Shown here piece by piece: positions 678 to 14,287 of a stretch of DNA of 15,014 nt. Origin of the DNA: a virus; the UHGV virus genome UHGV-0136760. The stretch is one strand, 5' to 3'. Numbering within the stretch: the first letter of the stretch is position 1; every line of letters begins with the position of its first letter. The notes under the pieces were generated by a model. It searched no databases, was not told the origin of the DNA, and saw only the letters and a program-made list of their open reading frames with translations. The position numbers were made by a program, and so were the translations under genes.

Positions 678-1283
678 TTAAGGTGTCAAATCAAGCGCCA
701 TCTTATAGAGCGTCATTTGGTCGGCATTGTGCCGTATAAAATCACTCTTACCGCCTACCTTTCCATCAGCATGAACGGGTACCAGCCAGGGATACTGTGT
801 CCGGACTTCTGCTGGCGCTGCATGTTGGTGATGCCATTTGCACAAAGGGAGGACATATTTATGTGCATCTGCGACTGTCCTGCCAAAAATGTGATGCAGG
901 GAGATGTGTGGACTATGCTTGCCATGCAACTGGCACGCAATACACGGTAAGGTGGCAATGGCACCCTGTATTCTGCGTTCTTCCGCTGTCAGTGAGCGCC
1001 CTTTTAGTCCGCGTGATGCACGTTTGGTTACTGCCACCTTTTTTACTTCCCCGGCAGAAGCCTTGCTCATAGCTTTCTCTTTTCGGCGTTCCTCTGCCTT
1101 CCTGACTGCTTCAATTTTTTCCTGACGATATTCAGGTGAAGCCAATTTTTCACGTGTGCGCTGATACTGGCGCTGTGCTCTCAAACGCTGTTTTTCCCGT
1201 TGTGATTCTCTCCACTCAGGATCGGACAATTTCTGTAGCGCTTTCTGGCGCTGCTTTTCCCACAGAGACAGTTTTTCTTTCAT
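678..1283 (-). CDS. HNH endonuclease, Ref-like (phage P1 recombination enhancement function family)
   Basis: 201-aa ORF. The N-terminal half is a highly charged K/R/E/Q-rich region; the C-terminal half carries an HNH/zinc-finger signature (CIACQLHGKHSPHISLHHIF ... LPLCKWHHQ). Assignment by motif recognition only. Confidence 0.65.
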   Translation of the reverse strand: MKEKLSLWEKQRQKALQKLSDPEWRESQREKQRLRAQRQYQRTREKLASPEYRQEKIEAVRKAEERRKEKAMSKASAGEVKKVAVTKRASRGLKGRSLTAEERRIQGAIATLPCIACQLHGKHSPHISLHHIFGRTVADAHKYVLPLCKWHHQHAAPAEVRTQYPWLVPVHADGKVGGKSDFIRHNADQMTLYKMALDLTP

Positions 1284-4303: not shown

Positions 4304-4597
4304 ATGAGTCAAGGTAACGGTGACGGAGCTGCAAAGTGCAGAATCTCCACTTGTTTGATTAATGACAGAAAAATAGAACCGTGCGCGGCGCTGGCACAAT
4401 CTCTGGAGCAGGATGCTGAATACACGACGCGAAAAGGTCTGCTGAAATACAAAATCTATAACCATGAATTAATTCATTCACAAGACCTGATCATGCTGCG
4501 GTCTGGTGAATTTTCTAAATCGCCTATTCGAGTTTCATTTTGCCCGTTCTGTGGTGAAAGTCTGAAAACGTGGGAAGCGGAGGCAACCAGTGAATAA
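4304..4597 (+). CDS. hypothetical small Cys-containing protein (97 aa)
   Basis: ORF with cysteine pairs (CRISTC ... CPFCG) suggesting a zinc ribbon. Its 3' end overlaps the start of paralog copy B by 8 nt. Confidence 0.5.
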   Translation: MSQGNGDGAAKCRISTCLINDRKIEPCAALAQSLEQDAEYTTRKGLLKYKIYNHELIHSQDLIMLRSGEFSKSPIRVSFCPFCGESLKTWEAEATSE

Positions 4598-5234
4598 CCG
4601 CTTTTACATGATGTGCTTGCGTGAAACTGTGGGTAATAACGCCTCATTCCATTGCCATAACGGCAATGGTTACAGTTCTGATATCGATCGCGCTCATGTT
4701 TACACGCTGGAAGAAGCCCAAAAAGCCTGGAATTGTGGACGAGATATCGATCAGCCTGTTTGCGCTGATAGCGTGGATGCAATGGCTGTGTGGCACGTTG
4801 ATTGCCAGTACATCCCTACAGAAAGCCTGATTGAGTCAGATTGCACTGCGTATGTGGCCTACAAAAAAGGTAGCTGGAACGGCAACGATGTTTACTGGCT
4901 TCAACACGGTGGATTGCCAACAGATGACTTCAGTAAAGCGACCATCTTTAGCGTCGCCAACAAAAACGAACCAGGAATAGTTTGGTTGCCATTTTCCATT
5001 GCTGATGCAGCAAAGCGTCGGACGTTCAATATCAATAACGTTAACCGCAGAACAATGGTTCAGGGCGCAGGTTTGGTCATGCCTGACTGGTTGAAAGAGC
5101 AGAACAGAAGAAAGAAGTCGCGAAGCGGGAAGGTGCGTTGGAATTGTCCGCATTGCGGAAAAATAACCTGGCAGTACAGCCCATATGATTTTGAAGGCTG
5201 TAGTGATTACAACTGTGAAGGATGGCGAGAATGA
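4590..5234 (+). CDS. hypothetical protein with C-terminal zinc-ribbon, paralog copy B (GTG start)
   Basis: 214-aa ORF, same length and same C-terminal CxxC...CxxC motif as 1846..2490. The central part is identical at the nucleotide level; the ends are diverged. Confidence 0.65.
   Translation: MNNRFYMMCLRETVGNNASFHCHNGNGYSSDIDRAHVYTLEEAQKAWNCGRDIDQPVCADSVDAMAVWHVDCQYIPTESLIESDCTAYVAYKKGSWNGNDVYWLQHGGLPTDDFSKATIFSVANKNEPGIVWLPFSIADAAKRRTFNINNVNRRTMVQGAGLVMPDWLKEQNRRKKSRSGKVRWNCPHCGKITWQYSPYDFEGCSDYNCEGWRE
4749..5017 (+). repeat. 269-bp segment identical to 2005..2273
   Basis: See paired repeat feature; offset between copies is 2744 bp. Confidence 0.75.
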
Positions 5235-7579: not shown

Positions 7580-7853
7580 CCTGCAACTTGCCGTCAAAGG
7601 TGAATACTTCGATGCCATGATTCGCGGAGAGAAAACGGAAGAGTATCGCTTGTGTAATGGCTACTGGAATAAGCGAATCATGTTCCGGGAATATGACCGC
7701 CTGATTATCACAAAGGGATATCCGAAGCGCGACGATTCCAGTCGCAGAATAGACGTCCCGTATAACGGATATGAAATCAAGACAATCACACATCCGCACT
7801 TCGGTGATAAACCGGTAAAGGTGTACGCGATAAAGGTGAATATCAATGGCTAA
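7572..7853 (+). CDS. ASCH/DUF3850-like small protein
   Basis: GTG start with a GGAGG Shine-Dalgarno. N-terminal LAVKGEYFDAMIRGEKTEEYR resembles the ASCH-domain beta-barrel motif. Overlaps its neighbours at both ends. Confidence 0.5.
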   Translation: MANLQLAVKGEYFDAMIRGEKTEEYRLCNGYWNKRIMFREYDRLIITKGYPKRDDSSRRIDVPYNGYEIKTITHPHFGDKPVKVYAIKVNING

Positions 7854-8274
7854 ATTTCAAAGAGCTATTATTTTTCTGGCTATGTTATCAGCCAGTCATT
7901 TATCCCACGCGTCAGTTATTGCCGCTGGAGCGGCGGCAACAGCGGCGGCAACAGCGGCGACCACGGCGGCAGTAAATGCTTCTATCGCCAGCGAGCAAGC
8001 GCGGCGTGCTGCAACCAATGCTTCCGCAAACACCACCACGGTATCAGTCACACAATCAAAACCGAATATAGGCTTTGTTACTTGTGGCAAGCGATATGGT
8101 GAAATGGTTGGCTCTCTTGGTTGCGTAATGTGGCAAGACGACGACCGAACAGAAATTCCGTGGAACTCATGGCCTGGCTACATTCTTGGTAAGAAGCTGC
8201 CCACCAGCTATGAAGTAAATGCTATTTCGTTCGACCAATATAACAGTGTTGCAACGGTCTATTTCTCTTATTAA
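7846..8274 (+). CDS. secreted protein with signal peptide and Ala/Thr-rich low-complexity region
   Basis: N-terminal signal-peptide-like segment MAKFQRAIIFLAMLSASHLSHA, followed by an Ala/Thr-rich tract and a C-terminal domain containing two Cys. Confidence 0.6.
   Translation: MAKFQRAIIFLAMLSASHLSHASVIAAGAAATAAATAATTAAVNASIASEQARRAATNASANTTTVSVTQSKPNIGFVTCGKRYGEMVGSLGCVMWQDDDRTEIPWNSWPGYILGKKLPTSYEVNAISFDQYNSVATVYFSY
7931..7966 (+). repeat. tandem 12-bp repeat (CGGCGGCAACAG x2 plus one degenerate unit) inside a CDS
   Basis: Direct tandem units read in the sequence; they encode the AAATAAATAATT low-complexity tract. Confidence 0.5.
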
Positions 8275-10447: not shown

Positions 10448-10699
10448 GTGTCAGATCGAAATATAGCAGCTAAAAGCCAGGAAGAGCGAGACAAGGTGAA
10501 CGTAGACCTTGCCGCCAGCGGCGTTGCTTACAAAGAACGGCTGAATATACCTGTGATTGCAGAGCAGGTGGCCCGTGAGCAACCGGAAAACCTGCGCGCC
10601 TATTTCATGGAACGGCTACGGCACTACCGGAAGTTAAGCCTCCAGTTGCCAAAAGGGAGCGATCCGGTGTATCAGAACGAGGATGCACCAAAAAAATAA
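10448..10699 (+). CDS. hypothetical protein (83 aa), GTG start
   Basis: Strong AGGAGG Shine-Dalgarno about 7 nt upstream of the GTG. No recognised domain. Confidence 0.55.
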
Positions 10700-10822: not shown

Positions 10823-11212
10823 ATGGGCTTCCCTTCTCCTGCGGCGGATTATGCAGAGAGCCGCATTTCTCTTGATCAGCAACTAATCAGACATCCTTCC
10901 GCGACCTACTTCATGCGGGCGGCAGACAGCCATCACCGTGAGGGAATATTGCAAGGTGCTTTGCTGGTGGTTGATTCCTCACTTACTCCGGTTGATGGTT
11001 CACTGCTTATATGCGCTATGGAGGGTGAATATCGCATAAAGAGATACAGGAAGTATCCGCGCCAGCACCTGGAGGATTTAAGCACCGGGAAGAAAGAGGC
11101 GTTACCAGTAGATGACGATGGATGCACGGGCAGTAATGCTGTGTTTGGTGTGATCACTCATGTCATTAATGATGCCCGAAGTGGGGAGTTTGATTATAGA
11201 CCTGTGATTTAA
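10823..11212 (+). CDS. UmuD'-like protein (S24 LexA/UmuD peptidase fold lacking the N-terminal arm; P1 HumD-like)
   Basis: Starts MGFPSPAADYAE, i.e. at the position corresponding to the UmuD to UmuD' cleavage site. Colinear with E. coli UmuD' through to FGVITHVI. GAGGTAAAA Shine-Dalgarno. Confidence 0.8.
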   Translation: MGFPSPAADYAESRISLDQQLIRHPSATYFMRAADSHHREGILQGALLVVDSSLTPVDGSLLICAMEGEYRIKRYRKYPRQHLEDLSTGKKEALPVDDDGCTGSNAVFGVITHVINDARSGEFDYRPVI

Positions 11213-11223
11213 GGCGCATAAAG

Positions 11224-11252
11224 AAGCCCGCCAGACCTGGCGGGCTTTTTGT
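11224..11252 (+). terminator. Rho-independent terminator (10-bp GC-rich stem, GACC loop, T5 run), probably bidirectional
   Basis: AAGCCCGCCA-GACC-TGGCGGGCTT followed by TTTTT, placed between the convergent stops at 11212 and 11258. The reverse strand has a T-rich tail after the same hairpin. Confidence 0.75.
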
Positions 11253-11257
11253 TGATA

Positions 11258-12352
11258 TCATTCAATGATTTTTTCGGCTGTCAGCCAGCTAATTTCGTGC
11301 CTGTCTTTCGGCGGTTTTAGCATGTGAGCATATTCAGCGACATGCTCCCACGGAATTGTTTTTGCCCACTCAACGATAGCATTGTGATCTGCAGTGAAGA
11401 GTGGAATAGTGTGCGATTTCAACCATTCTAATGTCGTGACGCCATGTTTTTTGGCGTGGTGCTGCGCATGATGCCGGGCTATCACTCGTAATGGCATTGT
11501 CCATTCACTACCATCAGGCATCGAAAAGCGCATTGTCTTCGGCATATCTGATTCAAGAACAGCCTCCCTAATACCAGGGAACTCACCAAGAATCATACGA
11601 CGATAGTCATCACTATTTCGCCCGCCATACCTTTCGGCAAAATGATCAAGATATTCTTGGGTAATAAATGGTGAATCCTCCGCACTCAGCTTAATGGCTT
11701 TATATACACCACTCGGATTATCTTCAGCTAAAGCACGTCCATGATGTGAATCATAAAAAAAGCCTATTTCCTCTGGTGACGGAATTGAAGTGAGCAATAT
11801 GCGTGAATCACCACTAGTCATGCTTGCCCACACAATGCTGTATGCCCGATCGCTGATATGTGCGGAATCCACAATAATGAATAAAAGATGGTCGGCGTAG
11901 TGACCTGCAATGCTATCTTCATAGTTAAGGCGGTAGTTACAAAAGCACATTCCCCAAAATTCATTGAACATCAGACCGCTATCACCGACCTTAAAATACT
12001 CAATGATAAAAGGTTGTTTTTTCAGCAATGCCTCCCAACATTGCCACACATATGCAACAATTCCTCTTTTGCAAACATTTGATTTTGGATAAACAATTAC
12101 TGTCCGGGAATCAGGATACATAATCGTATAAAGGGTACTAATAACAGCAAGCACTTGCGGTCGTCCGATCCCATACGGAGTGGTGACAGTAGCTTTTGCA
12201 TTATTGGGCTGTATAGCTTCAACAATTTGTTGTTGCTGGTGGCTTAAATCAATATCAAACAATTCTTTTGCTGCCAGTACCCAATTGTCTTTATATTTCT
12301 CCACCAGCGACAGCCAGCGCGGATCTTTATAAATATTGCTCTTAGTCGCCAT
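11258..12352 (-). CDS. terminase large subunit-like ATPase-domain protein (no nuclease domain)
   Basis: Start taken at the internal ATG at 12352 (MATKSNIYK...), which has an AAGGAAG Shine-Dalgarno and overlaps the upstream stop. Terminase-like motif order: P-loop-like GIGRPQ, Walker B-like LLFIIVDSAH, motif III-like LLTSIPSPEE, then YRRMILGEF. Only 364 aa. Confidence 0.5.
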   Translation of the reverse strand: MATKSNIYKDPRWLSLVEKYKDNWVLAAKELFDIDLSHQQQQIVEAIQPNNAKATVTTPYGIGRPQVLAVISTLYTIMYPDSRTVIVYPKSNVCKRGIVAYVWQCWEALLKKQPFIIEYFKVGDSGLMFNEFWGMCFCNYRLNYEDSIAGHYADHLLFIIVDSAHISDRAYSIVWASMTSGDSRILLTSIPSPEEIGFFYDSHHGRALAEDNPSGVYKAIKLSAEDSPFITQEYLDHFAERYGGRNSDDYRRMILGEFPGIREAVLESDMPKTMRFSMPDGSEWTMPLRVIARHHAQHHAKKHGVTTLEWLKSHTIPLFTADHNAIVEWAKTIPWEHVAEYAHMLKPPKDRHEISWLTAEKIIE

Positions 12353-13109
12353 CTGCCACTTCCTTAACTTCTTCTTTGGCCTGTTCTGCAATCGCCGCAC
12401 GGCATTTCGCCCTGGCTGTAGCGATTGCTTCAGCTCGCACATCGTCTGGAATCGTTGACGTGATATACATATCCAGTTCTTCGGCACGGAATACTGTTTG
12501 GTCCAGATATTCGCGTAGCATCCAGGTAAATTCGAAATCACACGCGATAATCTCTGCGCTACCTTCTGCACCATTTGGGAAATGAATAAATGCCTGTTTA
12601 GCCAAACCGATAACACGACATGCGGTTGCCAAAACAGCGACAACCAGGTTTACATTTTCACACGCTACGGGCTGATTAACGCCGGAGATTACTCCATTTA
12701 ACTGTCGGTTATATGGAAGGTAGTTTGAGATGCGTTCTACGCGCCATGTGCCAGTCAGGCTGCCATTTTTAAAGATAATTGGTGTAACGGATAGCCCAAG
12801 CTCGCGTATAAGTCGTTGCGCTATAGCAGGATCATTAAACAGGTCTAATGCTACACATTCGAAAGACTGCGCAAGGGCAAACAGTTCTTCCAGAGAGTAG
12901 TCTTTGCCCCTGGCGGTGATGTAACGACGAACGCCGCTGTCTGCATCACTCCATATAGCTACGCCATGCTCTTCATTCAGCTCTTCATTAAAGCCGAGAT
13001 ACGTCATGATAGTGCGTTCAATCGTGTCAAACGGCAGTGACATGTCGGCGTTAACAGCCACCAGCAGGCCATTACGCAAGCGGTATTGAATTGTTTTAGT
13101 GCTTTCCAT
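12342..13109 (-). CDS. hypothetical protein (255 aa)
   Basis: ORF with a GGAG Shine-Dalgarno. Acidic Ala-rich C-terminal tail. No recognised domain. Confidence 0.55.
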   Translation of the reverse strand: MESTKTIQYRLRNGLLVAVNADMSLPFDTIERTIMTYLGFNEELNEEHGVAIWSDADSGVRRYITARGKDYSLEELFALAQSFECVALDLFNDPAIAQRLIRELGLSVTPIIFKNGSLTGTWRVERISNYLPYNRQLNGVISGVNQPVACENVNLVVAVLATACRVIGLAKQAFIHFPNGAEGSAEIIACDFEFTWMLREYLDQTVFRAEELDMYITSTIPDDVRAEAIATARAKCRAAIAEQAKEEVKEVADGD

Positions 13110-13115
13110 GTCAAA

Positions 13116-13778
13116 TCACTCCACAACAAACCAGTCACAGGCCAGCAGGTCGCCAACTGAAGGCACCCACGGAACAACTACACCTTGTGCATTTTTTAAG
13201 GCGAAATAAGCACCATACGGAACGAGGTCGCCGGGGAAATATCCCTTAATGGCTTCCATTCGTGCCGGGTGCTGTCCTTCAGGAACCAGCCAGCAGAATT
13301 GGTCTTCGCCGTTCCACCCGCGTCGAGCAACTTTCTTGCCATCCTTCATCCACATCAGCGCGTCAGAAAAGTCGGCTGCTTCAAGGTCGATTTCTTCTTG
13401 TAGAGTAGCGATACCGCCAGCAGAAATAGTTACGTCCCTGGCTGTAATGAATGTCACCCCATTGTGACCTTCAATGCTGAGCGATACCCCATTTTCGGAG
13501 GCGTCGTTAACCCGGCTATAGCATTTTTCAAATGCTTTCTCTGGCACATAGACCAGATAACCATTTTCAGCAGTGACGAGATATCCTCCTATTTGCGGTC
13601 GGAACTTTTCCAAGAACACACCATCAACACGAAGCGTCATTCCTTTTGGCTCCACGACTTCGATGCTGCCAAAAATGGGCGCATAAGCTTTGCCGACAAT
13701 AACAATATCTTTGATTTTCGATGCCCGAATGATGCTGTGGCATTTGTATTTGGGGAACACCTGAAAAGTGCTGGCCAT
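13116..13778 (-). CDS. two-domain protein with C-terminal DUF2829 (Tad2-like) domain
   Basis: C-terminal ~90 aa (FSDALMWMKDGKKVARRGWNGEDQFCWLVPEG ... VVPWVPSVGDLLACDWFVVE) matches the DUF2829 signature. The N-terminal ~125 aa is an unrelated domain. GAGGAAGG Shine-Dalgarno. Confidence 0.6.
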   Translation of the reverse strand: MASTFQVFPKYKCHSIIRASKIKDIVIVGKAYAPIFGSIEVVEPKGMTLRVDGVFLEKFRPQIGGYLVTAENGYLVYVPEKAFEKCYSRVNDASENGVSLSIEGHNGVTFITARDVTISAGGIATLQEEIDLEAADFSDALMWMKDGKKVARRGWNGEDQFCWLVPEGQHPARMEAIKGYFPGDLVPYGAYFALKNAQGVVVPWVPSVGDLLACDWFVVE

Positions 13779-13792
13779 AATCCTTCCTCTAC

Positions 13793-14287
13793 TTAAAACT
13801 TTGCGTACTGAAGCGGTGTACGCTTGATTTCAACGCGGCCTTCCGATGTGCTACCAAAGCCACCAGCACCACGCTCCGTTTCGTTGAGTTCCTCAACCTC
13901 GACTAGTGAGACTTGTTCAACACGCTCAAAAATACCTTGCATGACAGCCATTCCAGGCTTGAGACAAACGCCTTCCCCGCCGGGATCAGTAATCAGTTTT
14001 GCCATGATTTCGCCGCGATAATCGGAGTCGATAATTCCTACGCAGTTAGCCAGGCGAGTATGTTTTTTGCAGCCCAATCCGGATCGCGGATAGAGTTTCA
14101 GACACCAGCCGGGCGGGATCTCCATAGCCAGTCCGGTATACACCCACCAGCTTGAGGAAATTGCACCATTGCTATCGACGCATGGTGTTATTTCAACAGC
14201 CTCAAAATCCATTGCTGCCGATCCTGCGGTGGCATAGAACGGCAGTTTTGCACCAGGATGCAGGCGCTTCACTTTTACGTTAATCAT
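13793..14287 (-). CDS. dut: dUTP diphosphatase (trimeric dUTPase)
   Basis: Start taken at the internal ATG at 14287 (MINVKVKRL...). All recognisable dUTPase motifs present: YATAGSAAMDF, PRSGLG, GIIDSDYRGE and RGAGGFGSTS. Overlaps the upstream gene by 8 nt. Confidence 0.85.
   Translation of the reverse strand: MINVKVKRLHPGAKLPFYATAGSAAMDFEAVEITPCVDSNGAISSSWWVYTGLAMEIPPGWCLKLYPRSGLGCKKHTRLANCVGIIDSDYRGEIMAKLITDPGGEGVCLKPGMAVMQGIFERVEQVSLVEVEELNETERGAGGFGSTSEGRVEIKRTPLQYAKF

Follow-up and report, generated by a model that had tools for sequence, protein, structure and literature searches.

PacB, the large terminase subunit (TerL) of P1/D6-type phages, is a Terminase_6N-type protein, and it is the described protein closest to the one examined here. 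The gene in question lies in a stretch of 15,014 nucleotides of the virus genome UHGV-0136760 (the whole stretch is called the window below) and encodes a TerL-like protein of 364 amino acids. Five features define a TerL – an ASCE-type packaging ATPase fold, a Walker A motif (GxxxxGK[ST]), a Walker B motif (hhhhDE), an RNase-H-like nuclease domain, and a place in the packaging module beside the small terminase subunit (TerS, which is PacA in these phages). The ATPase fold is present in the N-terminal domain of the TerL-like protein. The other four features fail – neither Walker motif is canonical, there is no nuclease domain, and pacA and pacB lie ca. 5 kb off, beyond c1 and cre – so the label 'terminase large subunit' is unfit for this gene.

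A second, nuclease-less copy of a terminase ATPase, encoded outside the packaging module of a phage with a normal TerL, is known in T4 as vs.8. Unlike the TerL-like protein, vs.8 retains Walker A (GGRQSGKS) and Walker B (IIDE), and it has no detectable sequence kinship to the family of Walker-dead proteins described below (hhalign probability 0.25%). It is an independent derivation and not a member of that family. Literature searches on terminase decoys, on terminase paralogs that are dead or lack the nuclease, and on anti-Avs proteins turned up no description of the family. A first-pass annotation of the window had suggested that this was not a described system; the suggestion stands for the family itself, but not for stand-alone TerL ATPase paralogs as a type, of which vs.8, with its intact Walker motifs, is a known case.

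Proteins by which a mobile element binds a terminase component of another phage, and so blocks or redirects its packaging, are a parallel in concept, and the first-pass annotation had proposed a role of this kind. Ppi of the Staphylococcus aureus pathogenicity islands (SaPI), Rpp of the phage-inducible chromosomal islands (PICI), and the TerS paralogs of SaPI are satellite-borne, target TerS, and are not derived from a TerL ATPase. The TerL-like gene differs in its carrier, which is a complete phage-plasmid with its own terminase, in its origin, and in its presumed target. The anti-defence mimics and sponges Ocr, Tad1, Tad2, and Acb2 are a further parallel – the points of likeness are an early-type placement, a Tad2-like neighbour, fast allelic turnover, and presence/absence polymorphism – and no homology was found between the TerL-like protein and these families. 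To our knowledge, no anti-defence protein mimics a phage protein that immune sensors recognize. TerL is among the proteins so recognized: SeAvs3 is said to contact its nuclease domain. EcAvs2 reads the TerL ATPase domain with bound ATP, and is also triggered by the stand-alone T4 paralog vs.8 (bioRxiv 10.64898/2026.04.30.721860).

Domains and motifs of the TerL-like protein

The gene, its signals, and the parts of its product have the following positions in the window.

11258–12352, minus strand: TerL-like gene, 364 amino acids, last gene of a cre-led operon
11567–12352, minus strand: N-terminal domain, residues 1–262, paralog of the PacB (TerL) ATPase domain by BLASTP, AlphaFold2, and Foldseek
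12155–12181, minus strand: degenerate Walker A motif (P-loop) TPYGIGRPQ, residues 58–66, with R64 and P65 at the places of Lys and Ser/Thr
11864–11887, minus strand: degenerate Walker B motif LLFIIVDS, residues 156–163, with V161 at the place of the Mg-binding Asp and D162 at that of the catalytic Glu
11261–11551, minus strand: C-terminal domain, residues 268–364, fused copy of a widespread family of stand-alone phage proteins of ca. 100 amino acids
12359–12365, minus strand: Shine-Dalgarno sequence AAGGAAG, 6 nt 5' of the ATG and within the 3' end of isaA, read off the sequence
11226–11250, acting on both strands: bidirectional intrinsic terminator, with an 8–10 bp G+C-rich stem, a 4-nt loop, and T-runs on both strands

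Residues 1–262 are almost certainly an ancient paralog of the PacB ATPase domain that has kept the fold and the non-catalytic motifs – an expressed-looking, selectively maintained pseudo-enzyme – to which a common phage protein, now residues 268–364, has been fused. The resident PacB is 37% identical to the TerL-like protein over residues 16–259 (BLASTP, E 3e-58), and the full PacB query matches positions 12334–11576 of the window (tblastn, E 4e-57). The PacB proteins of P1, P7, SJ46, RCS47, and D6 are 33–37% identical to it, and remoter TerL proteins down to 21%. The homology covers the whole ATPase domain, and the fold is the same: the family motifs DPRW, the Q-motif, the P-loop G-x-G, LAG, S-x-P, FYDSHH, AEDSP, YGGR..YR, and GEFP are all shared. 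Both proteins are encoded by the same phage-plasmids.

An AlphaFold2 model made with a 71-sequence alignment had a predicted local distance difference test (pLDDT) score above 92 for residues 1–260. With just 5 sequences the pLDDT was poor (55); the larger alignment mended the N-domain but not the C-domain. The best Foldseek matches in the PDB were the TerL ATPase domains of T4 gp17, P74-26, Sf6, HK97, and D6E (E about 3e-7), PDB 8dgc was also among the structure matches, and the best matches among viral models (BFVD) were likewise large terminases. With TerL proteins only among the top structure matches, and no non-terminase fold assigned, the terminase ATPase domain proposed in the first-pass annotation is borne out. 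Pfam and NCBIfam did not recognize the protein, giving just sub-threshold DUF5076 and PBSX TerL; the resident PacB itself barely reaches Pfam Terminase_6N. A sequence search of the PDB gave no match for the whole TerL-like protein, for its C-domain, or for IsaA, the product of the gene upstream.

In ungapped alignment with PacB, SGHGTGKSS stands against TPYGIGRPQ at Walker A, where Lys is replaced by Arg64 and Ser by Pro65, and LLLILDEA stands against LLFIIVDS at Walker B, where the Mg-binding Asp is replaced by Val161 and the catalytic Glu by Asp162. The GIGRP reported earlier for the P-loop (residues 61–65) was read correctly, R64-P65 being aligned to K-S of PacB. The IVDS reported for Walker B (residues 160–163) does lie in a degenerate motif, but its register was one residue off – V161-D162 occupy the D-E positions. 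In the AlphaFold2 model the predicted Walker B beta-strand (residues 155–161) ends at V161, in agreement with this register. In T4 gp17, even the change K166R reportedly destroys function.

Searches with the PacB nuclease domains of D6-like and P1 elements found no remnant in any frame of the 15-kb window (tblastn; best E 0.47, elsewhere), so the lack of a nuclease domain that had been noted holds, and there is no frameshifted leftover of one. With the Walker A Lys and Ser/Thr, the Walker B Asp, and the nuclease domain gone, the protein is predicted to have no power to translocate or cut DNA, and would be unable to serve as a packaging motor or a nuclease. The catalytic impairment suspected at first is thus matched by degenerate motifs in the protein and in all of its close relatives.

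The open reading frame (ORF) is a real gene. It runs from an ATG at 12352–12350 to a TGA at 11260–11258 on the minus strand, and its product is 100% identical to the hypothetical protein WP_032342034.1 of the E. coli plasmid pTB423. The ATG at 12352 is supported by the Shine-Dalgarno sequence, by homolog lengths of 364–366 amino acids, and by the alignment of the PacB N-terminus, which opens at residue 10 of the TerL-like protein (tblastn). Longer forms – an ORF of 461 amino acids starting at TTG, and an annotation of 438 amino acids (P0002) – cross the upstream gene out of frame and are unsupported. The stop does fall just before the terminator, as first noted: a G+C-rich hairpin at 11226–11245 (RNA fold dG −19.3 kcal/mol, z −3.0), common to the TerL-like gene and the convergent humD, lies 12 nt past it.

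The C-terminal domain, residues 268–364, is unrelated to PacB. It corresponds to positions 399–506 of PHROG 17928, and its profile finds more than 1254 protein clusters, mostly stand-alone proteins of 96–125 amino acids, none of which has a Pfam family, a name, or a functional annotation. In lambdoid prophages the relatives of this domain are found between a DnaB-type helicase gene and ninB, and also in the early-left region near DUF2303 and int. In the P1-like Cronobacter phage JK004 the domain is a separate gene of 98 amino acids behind a DnaB-type helicase, and in Xanthomonas CP2-like phages it is the C-terminus of a DUF1351 protein of 470 amino acids beside Erf, an exonuclease, and SSB. 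The AlphaFold2 model of this domain is of low confidence. The first-pass annotation had treated the TerL-like protein as a simple truncated TerL; it is instead an old two-domain fusion, of a PacB-N pseudo-ATPase and an unrelated phage domain of ca. 100 amino acids, within a diversified clade whose other members consist of the ATPase domain only.

Relatives and allelic variation

The TerL-like protein matches PHROG 5902, a family of 'unknown function' (E 1e-164), and HMMER, run exhaustively over 1.84 billion representatives, yielded 1457 relatives; the taxonomic range of the family was drawn from protein matches and plasmid records only. The 14 nearest full-length relatives all lack both the Walker A Lys and the Walker B Asp. 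Across the dead clade, the Lys position is held by R, Q, H, E, M, C, I, or T, the Asp position by V, T, A, M, I, P, or L, and the Glu position by D, E, N, H, or Q. Next in the list of matches are PacB-like proteins of ca. 430–880 amino acids, nearly all of which retain GK[ST] and [DE]E. None of the outcomes that would have refuted the first reading – a non-terminase fold, a canonical Walker A Lys and Walker B Glu by alignment, or a nuclease domain lost to a recent frameshift – was observed. The positions that the family has kept are non-catalytic or structural (Q40, G61, G63, A149-G150, S189, G197-F199-Y200, P228, Y250, and G256-F258), and they are kept among sequences of only 25–40% identity.

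Members of the dead clade are of several types. Some have 364–368 amino acids, many have ca. 244–268, and one has 444, with another tail; most lack the C-domain. The forms of ca. 244–268 amino acids end a few residues past GEFP, the motif that closes the ATPase domain, and are complete genes with further genes downstream. These short forms are found in the accessory regions of P1-like phage-plasmids, beside DUF551, Ead/Ea22, hot, umuC-like, HigBA, and mat genes, and the genes upstream of them vary – a Ref-like RecA-dependent nuclease, a radical-SAM protein, or small ORFs. At one locus (L010, 5336–6792) a short relative of 263–264 amino acids overlaps the gene for the Ref-like nuclease by 4 nt, and at another (L013, 4027–5795) a relative of the same length lies 18 nt behind the radical-SAM gene.

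In a rough neighbour-joining tree, 12 dead sequences formed one group adjoining the PacB-like live TerL proteins, and two (P0043 and P0073) branched apart from it. The dead domains are 25–41% identical to D6-type and P1-type PacB alike, while those two types of PacB are 60% identical to each other. The dead clade is an old, diversified lineage of pseudo-enzymes and no recent truncation. The homolog in the P1-like MH422554.1 (L002, 7995–9089) is called 'terminase large subunit' in GenBank despite having GIGETS and IVINS at the two motifs and no nuclease domain; this annotation is misleading and could propagate.

Variation within the D6-like elements was assessed from the amino-acid identities among three D6-like plasmids. 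Most proteins differed little: PacA was 94–98% identical, PacB 98–99% (98–100% in its N-domain), Cre 99–100%, Dut 97–98%, HumD 96–100%, and IsaA 97–99%. The C-domain of the TerL-like protein was as constant (97–98%), and its dead N-domain was just 52–76% identical. The Tad2-like protein (74–80%) was the sole other fast-varying product of the operon. Between the window and a second allele, the DNA identity was 97–100% in isaA, 49–78% in the N-domain, and 94–99% in the C-domain, with sharp steps at both ends of the N-domain.

By the Nei-Gojobori method, the N-domain had a ratio of non-synonymous to synonymous divergence (dN/dS) of 0.16–0.48 overall. Divergent alleles had a dS of about 1.4 and a dN/dS of 0.27–0.29, values that are rough for the most divergent pairs as dS is saturated there, and a closer pair had a dS of 0.30 and a dN/dS of 0.48. 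The C-domain had a dS of 0.07–0.21 and a dN/dS of 0.06–0.12. Two P1-like phages had the reverse pattern, with near-identical N-domains and diverged C-domains, and the two domains are therefore shuffled independently. The N-domain alleles are old lineages; recombination at the edges of the domains has exchanged them, and the selection on them is purifying, if relaxed. The TerL-like protein does not co-vary with the PacA and PacB of its own element.

The phage-plasmid and the cre-led operon

The element is a D6/P1-type phage-plasmid, with tail genes, mat, ref, a P1/P7-type C1 repressor, a Cre-type recombinase, pacA, pacB, and Phd/Doc or HigBA. The TerL-like gene is carried by 44 PLSDB plasmids of ca. 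90 kb, every one typed as non-mobilizable. Of 5426 complete E. coli genomes, 45 have the gene, in each case as a single plasmid-borne copy, and the ORF was intact in these 45 genomes and in ca. 130 plasmids. Just beyond the window, ca. 5 kb from the TerL-like gene, are intact pacA (454 amino acids) and pacB (502 amino acids with a corrected start) genes. The protein had been called an orphan; with pacA and pacB intact on the same plasmids, it is therefore no orphan terminase paralog. The pacB of pTB423 (L001, 26456–27910) has 484 amino acids in RefSeq and 502 in sister plasmids, and its start was probably mis-called, because the 502-amino-acid form regains the N-terminal DPRW motif that it has in common with the dead paralog.

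Upstream of the TerL-like gene, the following genes of the operon have these positions in the window.

12342–13109, minus strand: isaA homolog, 255 amino acids, 48% identical to P1 IsaA (tblastn), PHROG 2326
13116–13778, minus strand: two-domain Tad2-like (DUF2829) protein, Pfam PF11195 on residues 136–219 (E 2.7e-22)
13793–14287, minus strand: dUTPase, Pfam PF00692 (E 3.5e-14), annotated dut in pTB423

The TerL-like gene begins within isaA, sharing its last 11 nt, and the two may be translationally coupled. Domain and structure-database searches found no recognizable effector domain in IsaA, and IsaA was compared with PacA as a possible TerS paralog and showed no relation. The Tad2-like protein is a candidate anti-Thoeris sponge by its domain assignment; its N-terminal half is without assignment, and phage D6 has a shortened gene, of which only the C-terminal half is left. 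No PADLOC model was matched by the TerL-like protein, by IsaA, by the Tad2-like protein, or by the products of the two upstream ORFs.

The D6-like elements found in Escherichia, Enterobacter, and Klebsiella have an operon in the order cre, two small ORFs, (dut), the Tad2-like DUF2829 gene, and isaA, with a sigma70-like promoter upstream of cre that agrees with the consensus at 11 of 12 positions. At the end of the operon the TerL-like gene is optional: the E. coli plasmids studied have it, and it is absent from phage D6 and its Enterobacter/Klebsiella relatives, in which the rest of the operon is kept. A search of 41 kb of the D6-like plasmid, whose repressor is D6-type, for the C1 operator consensus of P1 gave no match. 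From PacB, then, the TerL-like protein is set apart not only by its lack of the Walker A Lys/Ser, the Walker B Asp, and the RNase-H-like nuclease domain, but also by a gene outside the pacA-pacB module, a foreign C-domain, hypervariability where PacB is invariant, and dispensability in relatives.

The P1-like elements have the pair in another place. In the IS1-free P1-likes MH422554 and 813R1, an isaA + TerL-like pair (48% and 52% identical to the pair in the window) lies between ssb and hxr, adjoining the dar anti-restriction operon. In classical P1, ssb has a C1-controlled operator (Ossb), and isaA follows 30 nt after ssb; IS1 and isaB hold the exact place of the TerL-like gene (NC_005856, L029, 3324–5887). 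IsaB was considered as a remnant of the TerL-like gene and is unrelated to it. The laboratory strain of P1 may have lost or replaced the gene. The isaA-IS1-isaB stretch of P1-like plasmids is known to be hypervariable (PMC6906374; PMC9603915), and isaA is non-essential in P1 (PMC10695390). In every context examined, the dead-TerL genes have an early-type or accessory placement.

Around the TerL-like gene is a cluster of genes modulating SOS and recombination: ref (678–1283, minus strand), encoding a RecA-dependent nuclease, hot (10448–10699, plus strand), encoding a Pol III theta homolog, and humD (10823–11212, plus strand), encoding a UmuD'-like S24 peptidase. Farther off on the plus strand are two copies (1846–2490 and 4590–5234) of a Cys-rich ORF of 214 amino acids with no Pfam family. 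The copies are 93% identical in protein sequence and 2744 bp apart, and each is preceded by an ORF of 97 amino acids. This duplication is absent from the matching place in pTB423, and the window is ca. 850 bp longer there. An ORF of 142 amino acids (7846–8274, plus strand), also without a Pfam family, has a signal-peptide-like N-terminus and a long Ala/Thr-rich low-complexity stretch, and may encode a secreted or envelope protein; it, too, belongs to the accessory region.

Candidate roles

The function that we infer, at somewhat less than an even chance, is that of a binding-only mimic of the TerL ATPase domain in a conflict, either in counter-defence or in packaging interference. A conflict role is suggested by the allelic hypervariability and presence/absence polymorphism in a constant background, by the neighbouring Tad2-like gene that varies in parallel, by the location in accessory hot spots beside anti-defence genes (the Tad2-like gene here, the dar operon in P1-likes), and by the early-type operons in every context. 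The genomic context suits packaging interference no better than it suits a conflict role. The TerL-like protein would bind, stoichiometrically, a partner that normally recognizes the TerL ATPase domain, and would do so outside its own packaging motor. Loss of ATP binding and of the nuclease domain could turn an activating ligand into a non-activating competitor, made early, ahead of PacB. Specificity would reside in the hypervariable N-domain, with the C-domain and the co-translated IsaA as constant accessory modules.

The preferred candidate for the target, though a doubtful one, is a sensor of the Avs1-3 or Upx type, by which host immunity detects TerL. A close second, somewhat more doubtful, lies in rival P1-type elements – their TerS (PacA), portal, or TerL ring – and would make the protein a dominant-negative agent of packaging interference. 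The immune sensor is slightly favoured because expression early in infection fits both the cre and the ssb contexts, whereas the exclusion of a rival phage needs expression in the lysogen, which is plausible for the cre context only. It is also favoured because the features that were lost are ones that sensors contact, the ATP-bound active site in the case of EcAvs2 and, reportedly, the nuclease domain in that of SeAvs3, and because EcAvs2 is triggered by T4 vs.8, a stand-alone ATPase paralog whose motifs are intact. In its most specific form, in which the dead PacB-N domain is a competitive antagonist that fills TerL-sensing receptors (Avs1-3, Upx) without triggering them and diversifies in step with them, the proposal is an unlikely one. 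The converse, in which the protein exists to be sensed as an Avs agonist, was rejected, as it explains no benefit to the element.

Several points weigh against a mimic in a conflict. A ligand mimic of a STAND sensor would a priori act as an agonist and not as an antagonist, and with dead domains so distant from any PacB, at just 25–41% identity, neither co-assembly with PacB nor binding of PacA is assured. PADLOC gave no match, and the literature searches found no anti-defence paper on the family. For the most divergent pairs, the saturation of dS blunts the estimates of selection. Arguments from neighbourhood are weak, as the accessory regions of phage-plasmids mix defence, anti-defence, toxin-antitoxin, and DNA-metabolism genes, and the C-domain family and several relatives adjoin replication and recombination genes, which suggests another kind of role.

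That other role, as an accessory to DNA replication or recombination, would have the dead ATPase fold serve as a DNA- or protein-binding scaffold while the C-domain docks SSB, a DnaB-type helicase, or a recombinase. It is improbable, though the adjacencies speak for it: the C-domain family lies directly behind DnaB-type helicase genes in lambdoid prophages and JK004, and is fused to DUF1351 beside Erf, exonuclease, and SSB in Xanthomonas phages; the isaA + TerL-like pair of the P1-likes comes after ssb; one dead relative overlaps the gene for Ref; and humD, hot, and ref are nearby in the window. However, the nin-like and early-left regions are general accessory hot spots, in which adjacency means little, and most members of the dead clade have no C-domain and have differing partners upstream (Ref, radical SAM, small ORFs). 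Hypervariability and presence/absence polymorphism would be unusual for a replication factor, and the isaA of P1 is dispensable.

A role within the element's own terminase is less probable again. As a regulatory or dominant-negative subunit, the protein would bind its own PacA, PacB, or portal and so delay or tune pac cleavage and packaging, for example so that stray PacAB stays inactive during lysogeny or in the early lytic cycle. The protein is paralogous to the resident PacB and encoded ca. 5 kb from pacA and pacB in a place that suits early expression, and non-catalytic subunits are known to poison ring ATPases, as in subunit-mixing experiments with T4 and phi29. The contrast between PacA and PacB, 94–100% identical, and the dead N-domains, only 52–76% identical, argues against a role tuned to the element's own terminase, as does the placement in an early accessory operon beside a Tad2-like gene. 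Further, D6 and the Enterobacter/Klebsiella relatives package DNA without the TerL-like gene, P1 itself has IS1 at its position, and the dead clade is equally distant (33–41% identity) from D6-type and P1-type PacB.

It is very unlikely that the TerL-like protein is, with IsaA, the sensor of a defence or exclusion module of the phage-plasmid, a bait that detects a component of an invader and switches on an effector. The two genes do form a translationally coupled cassette that moves between loci, with constant modules flanking a variable N-domain, and co-transcription with cre from a sigma70-like promoter in the D6-likes could have them on in lysogens. Yet the P1-like pair, behind the C1-repressed ssb promoter, would be off in lysogens, IsaA is widespread in elements that lack the TerL-like gene and there are dead domains with no IsaA, and neither a PADLOC match nor a recognizable effector domain in IsaA was found. 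Least probable is a decaying duplicate without function or an active NTPase using the non-canonical R64 and D162 – the catalytic motifs have degenerated, related elements can do without the gene, and in the allele of the window the Lys of Walker A is replaced by Arg and the Glu of Walker B by another acidic residue, but the ORF is intact in the 45 genomes and ca. 130 plasmids with dN/dS below 0.5, the clade is deep with conserved non-catalytic motifs, and no alternative catalytic residue is conserved across the family at the Lys or Asp positions.

What is new here is a modular lineage, so far uncharacterised, of stand-alone TerL ATPase-domain paralogs with dead Walker motifs. No protein of tailed phages is more conserved than TerL, which is also a main target of the pattern-recognition immunity of bacteria; that selection maintains a catalytically dead copy of its ATPase domain suggests a role in binding. 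If the target of the mimic is an immune sensor, it would represent a new class of counter-defence, a non-activating copy of a protein that the host detects; and if the antagonist proposal is true, this would be the first known phage to shield itself with an inactive copy of the protein by which it is detected. If the target is instead the packaging machinery of rivals, it would be a new mechanism of competition between phage-plasmids, elements that spread resistance genes in Enterobacteriaceae. The TerL-like gene also provides a first functional handle on the long-unexplained isaA-IS1-isaB variable region of P1.

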